In this document: piece after piece, positions 27,888 through 30,956 of the stretch
Layout of the letters: the number at the start of each line of letters is the position of its first letter
Position numbering within the stretch: the stretch's first letter is position 1
Origin: Escherichia phage EC.P2
Sequence record: PQ631072.1
DNA length: 64,000 nucleotides
Direction: 5' to 3' (one strand)
Notes under the pieces: model-generated
Told to the model about the DNA's origin: nothing
What the model saw: the letters and a program-made list of their open reading frames with translations, nothing else
Database searches by the model: none
Position numbers and translations under genes: made by a program

Positions 27888-28257
27888 CTAAGATATGCAA
27901 TCACCTTACCTCACAGTAAAACTCGTTACAATCGTTTTTAGGAGGTTCAGGTTGTACTTAAAAATAATCTAAAAAGGTGTTGACAAACGCAAAAAAGTAT
28001 GCTACCCTAACCCCCGAAAAACGCCGAGCGCAGCGAGGGGGTGTTATCTAATCTTGTGATACATGATCTAACAGACAACTGAGTAGTCTACATATAGCAC
28101 TATGTTATGTCTATAATACTAACATACATGCTCTATACTAACAATAGATTATTTATTAATTTTATTATTAATTAAATAATAAATATCTATTGACTTTAGA
28201 TCTATCTGTATGTAGAGTAGAGAACATAAAGTCCTAACTCAACTAAGGAGATAAAGA
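27888..28257. promoter_or_regulatory. AT-rich divergent control region between minus- and plus-strand gene blocks (candidate promoter cluster / origin)
   Basis: 370 bp non-coding; contains TTGACA at 27980, a GC-rich hairpin CCCCCG...CGAGGGGG (about 28010-28043), direct repeats CTATAATACTAACA / CTATACTAACA (28115-28145), and AT palindrome ATTTATTAATT...AATTAAATAATAAAT (28150-28185). Confidence 0.5.
28190..28218 (+). promoter_or_regulatory. sigma70-type promoter (TTGACT-17-TAGAGT) for prs-like gene
   Basis: -35 TTGACT at 28190-28195, 17-nt spacer, -10 TAGAGT at 28213-28218, about 40 nt upstream of ATG 28258. Confidence 0.55.
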
Positions 28258-29151
28258 ATGAAAGTTAGTATTCTGCATGGTGTTGACTGTTATGTTACTG
28301 ATGTAGACGTTAAAGTGTTTACATTCTCTGGTGGAGAACAACATGTTCAATTAGATACGAATCTATCAGGTTTCAATCATGCTACAGACAGAATCTTACT
28401 CACTTTAGAAGTAAGATCTGCTAAAGACTTGATGACTTTGGTTATGACTAAGAATGCATTGGACAATATGCTATATCATAAACCATATTGTGTTGATTTA
28501 CTCATGTTGTATGTGCCGTATGCACGACAAGACAGAGTGTGTGAGCCTGGGGAAGCATTCGGAGTTAAAGCATTTGCTTCTATAATTAATTCATTAAATT
28601 TCTCACGTGTTATCGTTGCTGATCCGCATAGTGATGTTACTCCAGCAGTGTTTGACAGACTCTGTGTAATACCTCAAGAAGAGATTGCTTACGAAACTTT
28701 AAAGTGGAAGTTACGTATGGAGAATTTTGCTCTTGTTAGCCCTGATGGTGGTGCTCTTAAGAAAATATTTAAATTATCTAAGAAAATGTCTTTAGATGTG
28801 TTCTGTGCAGAGAAGGTTAGAGATACCGCAACAGGTGCTATTGTTCGTACAGACATTTCTGTACAGGATTTCAATAAGCGTAACCTGATGATCGTAGATG
28901 ATATCTGTGATGGTGGTAGAACTTTTATCGAATTGGCTAAAGTGCTACGTGCTCGTAACGCAGGTAAGATTGAGCTATATGTTACGCACGGTATCTTTTC
29001 TAAAGGTCTTAAAGAGTTAAGTGAGCACTTTGACTGCATTCATTCTCTTAATGTGTGGGAAGATAACATCCAAGAAGATTCTGGTGTTCTTGTTAAGAAT
29101 CAGTCAGATTTGCAACAACAAATTGTATCTCCATACGTGTGGAATTTTTAA
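28258..29151 (+). CDS. ribose-phosphate pyrophosphokinase-like (PRPP synthetase family; possibly ADP-ribose pyrophosphate synthetase of NARP1 type)
   Basis: 297 aa; phosphoribosyl-binding loop MIVDDICDGGRTF resembles Prs VDDMIDTGGT. Confidence 0.65.
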   Translation: MKVSILHGVDCYVTDVDVKVFTFSGGEQHVQLDTNLSGFNHATDRILLTLEVRSAKDLMTLVMTKNALDNMLYHKPYCVDLLMLYVPYARQDRVCEPGEAFGVKAFASIINSLNFSRVIVADPHSDVTPAVFDRLCVIPQEEIAYETLKWKLRMENFALVSPDGGALKKIFKLSKKMSLDVFCAEKVRDTATGAIVRTDISVQDFNKRNLMIVDDICDGGRTFIELAKVLRARNAGKIELYVTHGIFSKGLKELSEHFDCIHSLNVWEDNIQEDSGVLVKNQSDLQQQIVSPYVWNF

Positions 29152-29161
29152 ATAATAAGTG

Positions 29162-29190
29162 TTGACAATAGGGAGTATGCTTAGTAAGAT
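29162..29190 (+). promoter_or_regulatory. sigma70-type promoter (TTGACA-17-TAAGAT) with embedded inverted repeat
   Basis: -35 TTGACA 29162-29167, -10 TAAGAT 29185-29190; inverted repeat GGGAGTAT...ATACTCCC spans spacer and -10. Confidence 0.6.
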
Positions 29191-29222
29191 ACTCCCACAT
29201 TAACAAACAAGGAGACATAACT

Positions 29223-30956
29223 ATGAATATTTTTGCACCTTTTGCTACTGATTGGTACAAACCTGGTCACAAGCAGATGTACAACCAAAATACAAAACTT
29301 ATTTTCTCTAATTTAACTCCTCGTAATGATAAAAACTTTGCACACTATGCAGATCGTGAAGCACGTGGTGTGATTGTTTTAGGTATTCGTCGAGCAGTCA
29401 CTGATGCTCTTGTAACTATGTGGGATAGCTTCTTTAAAATGTCTCGTAGTGCAGCAGTAAATAAGTTTTATCGTATGTCTAAAAATGCATTAGGTGCTTC
29501 TGCGCCTTCTGCTGAATGTTGGGGAGAATTGCACGACTTAGGTTATCTTCCGCTGGAAGTTCGATCTCTGCCAGAGGGTGTTTTGTGTCCTATTGGTGTT
29601 CCTGTATTTACTGTGCATAATACTTTAGAAAAATTCTTTTGGTTAACTAACTATGTGGAAACACTGTTGTCAGATGAAACTTGGAAGACAATGACTAATG
29701 CCACAGCAGCTTTTCAGTATAAGCGTATCGCTATGGCATATGCGATGGCAACGTGTGATAATATTGATCACGTTAACTTCCAGTGTCATGATTTTAGCCT
29801 ACGTGGTTTAAGTAATATCGAAGATGGTTATAAGAGTGGTATCGCTCACTTGGCATCGTTCACAGGAACAGATAATATTCTGGCTATTGAAACTGTGCAT
29901 GATTATTATGGTATTGATTATGATCAGTTTGTTGCAGGTTCGATTCCGGCAACAGAACATTCAGTAGCAACGACTAACATTGGAGCTATTGTTGAAGATC
30001 TGAAGAAACATTTCCCACATCTTAAAGATGATGTAGATGGGCTTCGTTATGTAGCAGAAAAAGAGTTTCTTCGTCGTTATATCGAAGAAATTGTTCCAGA
30101 AGGTTTTTGTTCATATGTAGCAGACTCTTATGACTATTGGGCTGTATTGACTCGCATTCTGGTAGAATTGAAAGATTCCATTATGTCACGAAATGGTCGT
30201 CTTGTTATTCGTCCAGATTCAGGAGATCCGGTTAAAGTTGTTGCAGGATACAATGTTGAATCTTTTGATAACTATGAAGACCTTTTAAATAATGGTATTG
30301 CGACAGCCACTGAAGTAGTTCATTTGGCTGATGTTAATAAGTATTACAATGTTCTTCAGGATTGCAGTGTTGCTGATTGCATTGATGAAACTTATGAGAT
30401 TCCTTATTGTGAAGCAGTAGGTTCTATTCAAATTCTTTGGGAAGTGTTTGGTGGTACTATCAACCGAAAAGGCTACAAGGTTCTTGATCAGCATATCGGT
30501 ATGATTTATGGTGATTCTATTACTGTTGAACGAGAACACGAGATCTTACGCCGACTGAAGAAGAAAGGTTTTGCAGCTTCCAATATTGTATTTGGTGTTG
30601 GTAGTTATACTTATCAGTTCAATACACGAGATACTTTTGGTTTTGCTGTTAAAGCAACAGGTAGTATCATCGGTGAACACGAAATTTTGGTAAGTAAGGA
30701 GCCTAAAACTGATCCTGGTAAACGCTCTGCAAAAGGTTTTATTAAGGTTGTTAAGGATACCAATGGTAATCTTTCTCTTGTAGATAATCTTTCTTTTAAA
30801 GATATCCAGGATGAAGACAATGAGTTACAAGTTATCTTCAAGAATGGTAAGGTTATTACACCACAAGTAGAAGGTCGTGATGAAACATTCACTGATATCC
30901 GCAACCGTGTTGATGTAGAGGTTCTTCGTACTATGGGAACCATCCAGGTTGACTAA
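29223..30956 (+). CDS. nicotinamide phosphoribosyltransferase family protein (NamPT/NadV-like)
   Basis: 577 aa; ATDWYKPGHK, KFFWLTNYVETLL, CHDFSLRG, VIRPDSGDP, DPGKRSAKG align to NAMPT blocks ATDSYKVTHY, CYWLTNWIETIL, LHDFGYRG, IIRPDSGNP, DPNKRSKKG. Confidence 0.8.
   Translation: MNIFAPFATDWYKPGHKQMYNQNTKLIFSNLTPRNDKNFAHYADREARGVIVLGIRRAVTDALVTMWDSFFKMSRSAAVNKFYRMSKNALGASAPSAECWGELHDLGYLPLEVRSLPEGVLCPIGVPVFTVHNTLEKFFWLTNYVETLLSDETWKTMTNATAAFQYKRIAMAYAMATCDNIDHVNFQCHDFSLRGLSNIEDGYKSGIAHLASFTGTDNILAIETVHDYYGIDYDQFVAGSIPATEHSVATTNIGAIVEDLKKHFPHLKDDVDGLRYVAEKEFLRRYIEEIVPEGFCSYVADSYDYWAVLTRILVELKDSIMSRNGRLVIRPDSGDPVKVVAGYNVESFDNYEDLLNNGIATATEVVHLADVNKYYNVLQDCSVADCIDETYEIPYCEAVGSIQILWEVFGGTINRKGYKVLDQHIGMIYGDSITVEREHEILRRLKKKGFAASNIVFGVGSYTYQFNTRDTFGFAVKATGSIIGEHEILVSKEPKTDPGKRSAKGFIKVVKDTNGNLSLVDNLSFKDIQDEDNELQVIFKNGKVITPQVEGRDETFTDIRNRVDVEVLRTMGTIQVD

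Follow-up and report, generated by a model that had tools for sequence, protein, structure and literature searches.

A Probable Core NARP1 Gene Pair with a Long-Form Namat in a phi92-like Coliphage

In the 64,000-nucleotide stretch of Escherichia phage EC.P2 DNA analysed here (sequence record PQ631072.1; referred to as the window), two adjacent genes encode proteins related to the ribose-phosphate pyrophosphokinase Prs and to nicotinamide phosphoribosyltransferase (NamPT). The original prediction, made from the letters of the DNA, took the pair for a candidate NAD+ reconstitution pathway of the NARP1 type. NARP1 was defined in 2024 by Osterman et al. (bioRxiv 10.1101/2024.02.11.579819). Its first enzyme, Adps, pyrophosphorylates ADP-ribose (ADPR) to ADPR-pyrophosphate (ADPR-PP), and its second enzyme, Namat, combines this product with nicotinamide to give NAD+. 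The evidence came from deletion of genes 79-80 of phage Bas63 and from biochemistry of the SPbetaL1 homologues, and phenotypes were reported against SIR2-HerA, Thoeris, DSR1/2, and SEFIR (bioRxiv 10.1101/2024.02.11.579819). Escape from NAD+-depleting defence is on record for Bas63, for Fado, and for phage SBSphiJ engineered to carry the SPbetaL1 genes, and the enzyme activities have been demonstrated only for the homologues from SPbetaL1, Paenibacillus foliorum, DyoEdafos, and Vibrio phage Gary. In the other known pathway, NARP2, the NamPTs form a separate clade and have no adjacent Adps. According to Osterman et al., no phage possesses both NARP1 and NARP2 (bioRxiv 10.1101/2024.02.11.579819).

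The Two Genes and Their Relatives

The genes lie on the same strand and are separated by a gap of 71 bp in the list of open reading frames (ORFs):

28258-29151, plus strand: adps, candidate ADP-ribose pyrophosphokinase of the Prs family, 297 aa (from the ORF, Pfam, PHROG, BLASTP, and a published listing)
29223-30956, plus strand: namat, candidate nicotinamide ADP-ribose transferase of the NamPT family, long form, 577 aa (from the ORF, Pfam, phmmer, Foldseek, and BLASTP)

Both ORFs are exactly as had been claimed, a Prs-like protein of 297 aa and a NamPT-like protein of 577 aa encoded back to back, and both families were matched. Overlapping ORFs of at least 50 aa occur at the two genes only on the opposite strand, and they are shorter (50-116 aa). 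The 297-aa protein matches the Pfam families Pribosyltran and Pribosyl_synth, with Pribosyltran_N under the cut-off, and belongs to phrog_619, 'ribose-phosphate pyrophosphokinase' (E 4e-91). The 577-aa protein matches NAPRTase (E 5e-38) and belongs to phrog_448, 'nicotinamide phosphoribosyl transferase' (E 1e-188).

The window DNA is 99.5% identical to that of Escherichia phage vB_EcoM_PHB05 and 97-99% identical to 55 phi92-like records (Justusliebigvirus, Stephanstirmvirinae), which include phi92 itself and phage Bas62 of the BASEL collection. Both genes are present in all 55 Justusliebigvirus records, where these are annotated, and most GenBank records give them the classical names, Prs and NamPT. 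The 297-aa protein and its PHB05 counterpart are 100% identical, and the 577-aa protein differs from its counterpart at one of 577 residues (V383I); relative to the Bas62 products the differences number one and four, respectively. The order Adps then Namat is retained even in relatives with only 49-53% Namat identity. The phi92, PHB05, and Bas62 proteins already stand in Table S1 of Osterman et al., which lists Adps homologues, with the entry 'Namat within 10 genes: Yes', and Table S2, which lists Namats, labels the partner proteins 'Adps-associated' (bioRxiv 10.1101/2024.02.11.579819). Thus, the locus has been catalogued as NARP1 by the discoverers of the pathway, and its NARP1 identity is known rather than new.

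The Namat-like Protein

Among the proteins compared, the 577-aa protein is closest to Namats. By BLASTP it aligns with Bas63 Namat at 395 bits (39% identity) and with the NARP2 NamPT of phage KVP40, NadV, at 135+87 bits (33-34% identity). In a phmmer search against the PDB, SPbetaL1 Namat (9W5X/9W5W) came out on top (E 1e-118), and human NAMPT was found at E 1e-50. An AlphaFold2 model was built on 50 homologues drawn from the 120 closest clusters, and it reached a predicted local distance difference test score (pLDDT) of 92.2 and a predicted template modelling score (pTM) of 0.91. Foldseek ranked 9W5X/9W5W first for this model (TMt 0.92-0.94), then Haemophilus ducreyi NadV, then human NAMPT.

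The catalytic core is present. Residues D10, Y12, F191, R194, D217, A243, H246, R330, D332, and G430-D431 correspond to the NAD+- and nicotinamide-contacting residues D13, Y15, F189, R192, D215, A242, the catalytic His, R306, D308, and G360-D361 of SPbetaL1 Namat, and the core positions are invariant across the 50 homologues. The sole contact residue changed relative to the SPbetaL1 crystal structure is Ser432, which stands for Ala362.

What separates Namat from NamPT is an adenine 'selectivity clamp', described in a 2026 structural study (PDB 9W5X/9W5W; PMC12774641). It is made up of a helix and a loop, and both parts can be located here:

30600-30632, plus strand: selectivity-clamp helix (SCH) signature GSYTYQFNTRD, aa 460-470, the Namat-defining motif with aromatics Y462 and F466 (PMC12774641)
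29316-29372, plus strand: selectivity-clamp loop (SCL) region, aa 32-50, TPRNDKNFAHYADREARGV, located by alignments and longer than the SPbetaL1 SCL

At the SCH position, SPbetaL1 Namat reads GSFTYQYNTRD and Bas63 Namat GSYTYQYMTRD, whereas KVP40 NadV reads GGGLLQQLDRD, Xanthomonas NamPT GGALLQKVDRD, and H. ducreyi NadV GAQTYQRNTRD. The two aromatics are thus missing from the KVP40, Xanthomonas, and H. ducreyi NamPTs. A motif of the SCH form occurs at the matching position in 119 of the 120 closest homologue clusters, which come from one large search and are almost all of Namat type. Throughout, Namat and NamPT were told apart by motif, pairwise scores, and the published tables rather than by a tree of our own.

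The loop is less straightforward. According to the rule given for SCLs, the Arg that stacks on adenine occupies the third position, or the stacking residue is the fourth if the third is Lys or Tyr. Here the SCL reads TPRNDKNFAHY, with Lys37 in the 'third' position followed by Asn38, and Phe39 two residues past Lys37. K37 and F39 are conserved in at least 90% of the 50 homologues, and Phe39 is the obvious candidate for the adenine-stacking residue of the SCL.

NCBIfam release 20 was also tried as a means of telling Namat from NamPT. It was set aside: it holds no Adps or Namat model, and the Namat-like protein and KVP40 NadV both pass the 'nicotinate phosphoribosyltransferase' equivalog NF006629.

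An unusual homologue was encountered among Namat-like proteins. This protein (P0099), of 867 aa, is encoded on a 92-kb metagenomic contig and has about 300 extra aa that split the catalytic motif as RPD|SGDP. The insert has Cys at its start and ends in CGN followed by Ser, which is an intein pattern. Since phrog_12872 matched both window proteins, P0099 was examined as an Adps-Namat fusion; this was rejected, as it has no Adps similarity and the extra segment is intein-like.

The Adps-like Protein

For the 297-aa protein, BLASTP gave 137 bits and 36% identity with Bas63 Adps, 83 bits and 35% identity with SPbetaL1 Adps, and 72 bits and 28% identity with Escherichia coli Prs (b1207). It failed all Prs equivalog cut-offs of NCBIfam (98 bits against the required 297 for NF002320, and 97.5 against 296 for NF002095) and passed the broad TIGR01251 subfamily model (118.3 against 113). 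Bas63 Adps behaves likewise. In an alignment of four sequences, the two segments that follow set the three Adps proteins, or two of them, apart from E. coli Prs, although neither is a validated signature. K-x-R-[DN]-x-x-T-G-x-I is common to the three Adps, whereas E. coli Prs has KRRPRANVSQ; and DDICDGGRTF is identical in the window and Bas63 proteins, whereas E. coli Prs has DDMIDTGGT. K186 aligns with the catalytic lysine K162 of SPbetaL1 Adps, whose K162A mutant is inactive. By these comparisons the 297-aa protein would belong to Adps and not to cellular Prs. Because the margin over Prs is small for SPbetaL1 Adps, this assignment rests mainly on similarity to Bas63 Adps, on the adjacency of the two genes, and on the published clade.

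Other Genes for NAD+ and ADPR Metabolism

A classical salvage or NARP2 pathway needs an adenylyltransferase for nicotinamide mononucleotide (NMN), or NMNAT. No NMNAT (CTP_transf_like) or NadR domain was found by Pfam in the ORFs of 1-28 kb and 31-38 kb and in one tail gene; the remaining ORFs at 38-64 kb, unscanned, are annotated as structural genes in PHB05. With E. coli NadD and NadR as tblastn queries, neither the whole window nor the complete PHB05 genome gave anything beyond chance matches (E > 2), and the PHB05 annotation, also complete, has no NMNAT entry. PHB05 gp151, annotated as 'nucleotidyltransferase', was considered as the missing NMNAT and discarded, as it matches the PolyA_pol head domain weakly and no NMNAT family. 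The claim that no NMNAT is visible in the window therefore holds by Pfam scans (the structural ORFs at 38-64 kb excepted) and tblastn in agreement. An NMNAT elsewhere in the genome, named beforehand as a finding that would refute NARP1, was likewise not found in PHB05 by tblastn with NadD and NadR, by annotation, or on inspection of gp151.

Extended NARP1 loci are known. NARP1-AP is an operon with a Macro-domain phosphatase of ADPR-1''-phosphate (Adpp), as in Vibrio phage Gary, and RyDEP is a glycosidase of cyclic ADPR with a RyR domain, found in loci such as that of phage DyoEdafos. Since no Macro or RyR domain was found among the window ORFs scanned by Pfam, the pair here has the two-gene core form of NARP1. 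Outside the window, PHB05 encodes a Sir2-family protein (E 1e-22) and a run of three genes, close to TerC and tellurite-resistance genes, whose products are a Macro-domain protein (under the annotation 'phosphatase'), a PRTase_3 protein that is ComF-like, and a HAD hydrolase:

12317-13129 of PHB05 segment L004, minus strand: Sir2-family gene
15600-17815 of PHB05 segment L006, minus strand: three-gene run with the Macro-domain gene

The Macro-domain gene lies about 67 kb from the NARP1 pair, and its product could be a counterpart of Adpp encoded in trans.

Interpretation of the Pair and Its Alternatives

Taken together, the pair is very probably a NARP1 module in its core two-gene form, carried by a phi92-like coliphage. 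The NARP1-type interpretation is supported by the SCH motif and the catalytic core of the Namat-like protein, by the similarity of its partner to Adps and the lysine K186, by the lack of any NMNAT found in the searches described above, and by the published tables. The mechanism would run as follows. A host defence system (SIR2-HerA, Thoeris, DSR1/2, or SEFIR) would cleave NAD+ into ADPR and nicotinamide; Adps would then use ATP to convert ADPR into ADPR-PP, and Namat would join ADPR-PP and nicotinamide to NAD+ in one step, so that no NMN adenylyltransferase would be required. Both reactions and the anti-defence phenotype are expected here by analogy with Bas63, SPbetaL1, Fado, and the other tested homologues.

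Several points weigh against this interpretation. The tested exemplars, Bas63 and SPbetaL1, are only 35-39% identical to the window proteins, and a literature search found no enzymology, phage knockout, or NARP1 experiment for any Justusliebigvirus. On the side of Adps, SPbetaL1 Adps scores only marginally above E. coli Prs. On the side of Namat, the residue after Lys37 in the SCL is Asn and not an aromatic, where Bas63 has the stacking Trp. The part of PHB05 outside the window encodes largely hypothetical proteins, and there the check for an NMNAT consisted of tblastn, the annotation, and the mutual exclusivity reported by Osterman et al., with no Pfam scan, so that a very divergent NMNAT could have escaped it. 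In addition, since Namat enzymes retain some activity in vitro for the conversion of phosphoribosyl pyrophosphate (PRPP) to NMN (PMC12774641), the classical PRPP-to-NMN reaction may by analogy make a contribution here.

This last point leads to classical salvage, in which the pair would be a true PRPP synthetase and a NamPT making NMN, and host NadR, or PncC with NadD/NadE, would finish NAD+. Both proteins do pass general Prs or NamPT family models and are so annotated in most GenBank records, Namats synthesise NMN from PRPP in vitro, and E. coli NadR could complete the step from NMN to NAD+. Yet the Namat-like protein bears the clamp motif that the KVP40, Xanthomonas, and H. ducreyi NamPTs lack, its partner falls below every Prs equivalog cut-off and resembles Bas63 Adps more than it does E. 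coli Prs, and the homologous Bas63 pair works in a host without pncC and nadR. SPbetaL1 Adps, moreover, gave no product in an assay meant for Prs activity, and those who defined the pathway list the phi92-like proteins under NARP1. Classical salvage is therefore regarded as very unlikely.

It is also conceivable that the chemistry is that of NARP1 and the purpose is not counter-defence, the pair serving to recycle NAD+ used by the phage's own enzymes or to raise NAD+ for replication. The Sir2-family and Macro-domain proteins of PHB05 fit this idea, in that the phage may itself produce ADPR-type products, and NARP1 homologues are also known from non-mobile parts of bacterial chromosomes, with a housekeeping role suggested for them. 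In Bas63, however, ADPR-PP was seen only in the presence of an NAD-depleting defence, and the deletion phenotype was defence-dependent. Such a purpose, to which we give little credence, alters the context of the NARP1 module and not its mechanism.

There is next to no chance that the locus is of the NARP2 type, a NamPT with a phage NMN adenylyltransferase encoded elsewhere: a NamPT-family gene and the 'nucleotidyltransferase' annotation of gp151 are what it has in its favour, and against it stand the weak PolyA_pol head-domain match and lack of NMNAT family in gp151, the empty tblastn searches with NadD and NadR in the window and PHB05, the absence of CTP_transf_like from the scanned window ORFs, the separate clade of NARP2 NamPTs without adjacent Adps, the exclusivity of the two pathways among phages, a clamp motif that is not of the KVP40 type, and the higher score of Bas63 Namat over KVP40 NadV.

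Insertions in the Long-Form Namat

The NamPT homologue had been described as about 80 aa longer than usual and possibly carrying an extra segment. This proved correct: the excess amounts to about 86 aa relative to SPbetaL1 Namat (491 aa) and KVP40 NadV (497 aa), and it is distributed over two insertions, neither of which is found in those two proteins:

29979-30068, plus strand: insertion 1, aa about 253-282, defined by alignment gaps and lying within the modelled helices 246-263 and 271-290 (pLDDT about 86-93)
30249-30419, plus strand: insertion 2, aa 343-399, a small alpha/beta subdomain in the model, immediately past the RPDSGDP ribose-binding strand (pLDDT 86-96)

In the AlphaFold2 model, the helices of insertion 1 appear to form a helical hairpin. 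Insertion 2 is modelled with strands at 345-348, 365-368, and 373-376 and helices at 351-357, 383-386, and 395-399. Both insertions occur in all 50 aligned homologues, and the proteins of the 120 closest clusters have a median length of 572 aa, many of them encoded on phage-sized contigs of about 140-155 kb. Within the 50 homologues, insertion 1 has a length of 28-33 aa and shows moderate conservation. Insertion 2 varies from 47 to 93 aa and is variable in sequence, with a mean majority-residue frequency of 0.40 against 0.77 in the core.

The Namat of Bas63 (593 aa) is also interrupted at these two sites, with dissimilar sequence and a longer insertion 2. Since Bas63 Namat has been validated with its insertions in place, long-form Namats do function in vivo. 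The insertions go unmentioned in the structural paper (PMC12774641), and these are the only part of the finding that goes beyond the literature covered. Instead of being neutral decoration, they might add a function, for example by docking Adps for direct handover of ADPR-PP or by presenting a regulatory or decoy surface against host inhibitors, but we consider this unlikely.

Promoters and Expression

The pair consists of the first genes of a rightward transcription unit, because the sign of the GC skew switches at about 28 kb and the genes to the left of 28 kb are all on the minus strand. Each gene is preceded by a site resembling a sigma-70 promoter:

28190-28218, plus strand: TTGACT-17-TAGAGT, 5' of adps, a consensus match only (9/12), in a 370-bp AT-rich divergent intergenic region
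29162-29190, plus strand: TTGACA-17-TAAGAT, 10/12, inside the 71-bp spacer between adps and namat

The start coordinate of the locus in the original prediction, 28190, is that of the -35 hexamer of the first site. AAGGAG-type ribosome-binding sites lie 3' of both sites. Each gene had been credited with its own strong promoter, and of this the presence of a promoter-like site and a ribosome-binding site before each gene stands. For their strength the consensus is the only ground, because the number of promoter-like sites in the region (20) is not above that in shuffled sequences (15 +/- 3.9). The general promoter scan was for this reason dropped as proof of 'strong promoters'. Enrichment is confined to one recurring motif, the exact pattern TTGAC-N18-TAAGAT, of which the window has three copies where 0.08 would be expected, at 8019-8047 (minus strand), 29162-29190 (plus strand), and 30949-30977 (plus strand), so that two of the three copies flank the NamPT-like gene. 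A related site with an 18-nt spacer is located at 31370-31399. The pattern probably marks one class of phage promoters read by host sigma-70. No terminator-like site was found between adps and namat in a scan of the region. The position of the pair at the head of the rightward unit, with a host-type promoter-like site for each gene, suggests early expression of both by host RNA polymerase.

Neighbouring Genes

After the pair, the rightward unit continues with an array of 16 tRNA genes and then with lysis and structural genes. The array (31704-34592, plus strand) begins about 750 bp 3' of the Namat gene. Its 16 genes include four with CAT anticodons, called as Met by the tool, two for Leu, and two for Ser; the annotation of Bas62 shows fewer CAT-anticodon tRNAs than the window. 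Bas62 also has an ORF for a putative homing endonuclease, placed between its tRNA-Ser and tRNA-Lys genes, that is missing from the window. Directly 3' of namat is an ORF of 73 aa (31028-31249, plus strand), preceded by its own promoter-like site at 30949-30977; the encoded protein has two Cys-x-x-Cys pairs, is zinc-ribbon-like, and has no Pfam match. Further on, an ORF of 57 aa (35508-35681, plus strand) encodes a DUF7230 protein. The tRNA array and several small ORFs separate it from namat, and distant relatives have their DUF7230 gene no more than about 250 bp 3' of namat.

Upstream of the NARP1 genes and divergent from them is a cluster of RNA-repair type (23476-26255, minus strand), which encodes a polynucleotide kinase (AAA_33), an RNA ligase, a metallophosphoesterase, and a protein of 124 aa with a cREC_REC 'cyclic-phosphate processing receiver' domain (E 1.6e-12). 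A kinase, ligase, and phosphoesterase neighbourhood beside NARP1 is also found in Erwinia phage Hena1. A link of the cluster to ADPR-cyclic-phosphate, the breakdown product of ADPR-PP, is conceivable.

At the left of the window there is a complete-looking dTDP-rhamnose pathway (4951-8212, minus strand):

4951-5781, minus strand: RmlD-like gene
5778-6332, minus strand: RmlC gene
6345-7214, minus strand: RmlA gene
7223-8212, minus strand: RmlB gene

Genes for glutaredoxin, lysozyme, and PhoH lie near them. The pathway may serve modification of DNA or of a surface glycan.

Significance

The value of the locus as a discovery is small, as the paper that described NARP1 in 2024 already tabulated the proteins of this genus. 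It has practical consequences all the same. In public records of phi92-like phages, several of which are therapy candidates, and in NCBIfam, a counter-defence function is concealed by the names 'ribose-phosphate pyrophosphokinase' and 'nicotinamide/nicotinate phosphoribosyltransferase'. The motif GSX-phi-X-phi-X-phi-TRD tells Namat from the NamPTs compared here, which family models cannot do. The phi92-like phages, including Bas62 of the BASEL collection and its listed relatives, offer a genetically tractable second coliphage lineage in which NARP1 and the roles of the insertions can be studied, and the Sir2 and Macro genes of PHB05 are further genes for handling NAD and ADPR in a phage that already has NARP1.

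Comparison with Known Systems

One comparison is with cellular enzymes. E. coli Prs and the bacterial NamPT/NadV enzymes, such as that of H. ducreyi (PDB 9KE8), share superfamilies, folds, and ribosyl-transfer residues with the window proteins, but H. ducreyi NadV has no aromatic at positions 3 and 7 of the SCH motif. The NARP2 system of Vibrio phage KVP40, which consists of the NamPT NadV and the Nmnat NatV, has the NamPT fold, the core, the match to NF006629, and the purpose of restoring NAD+ against defence in common with the pair described here. It differs in that NadV has no aromatic clamp motif and no insertions, prefers PRPP, and has no adjacent Adps, and in that KVP40 needs its phage Nmnat, a gene for which was not found here. 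The NARP1-AP and RyDEP loci share the Adps and Namat core, and the pair in the window has no Macro or RyR gene within or beside it.

The biochemical and structural exemplar is the Bacillus phage SPbetaL1. Its Namat has the core residues and the SCH motif in common with the Namat-like protein of the window, and its Adps has the same lysine. The SPbetaL1 Namat is the short form of 491 aa without insertions; its SCL is shorter, with Arg40 stacking on adenine where the window protein has Lys37. The counterpart of the 5-phosphate loop in SPbetaL1 Adps reads DDLSSFGGT, against DDICDGGRT here, and the host is Gram-positive.

The in vivo exemplar, Bas63 (JohannRWettstein, MZ501086, Felixounavirus), belongs to the Ounavirinae and not to the Stephanstirmvirinae, and its proteins are 36% (Adps) and 39% (Namat) identical to those of the window. 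Its genes 79-80 are separated by a gap of 45 bp instead of a 71-bp spacer with a promoter-like site, and its SCL has K-W where the window protein has K-N-F. In other respects Bas63 resembles the locus described here: adps precedes namat and shares its strand, the proteins fall into the same Pfam families, the SCH motif is present, the Namat is of the long form (593 aa, compared with 577 aa) with both insertion sites in common, and the host is E. coli.

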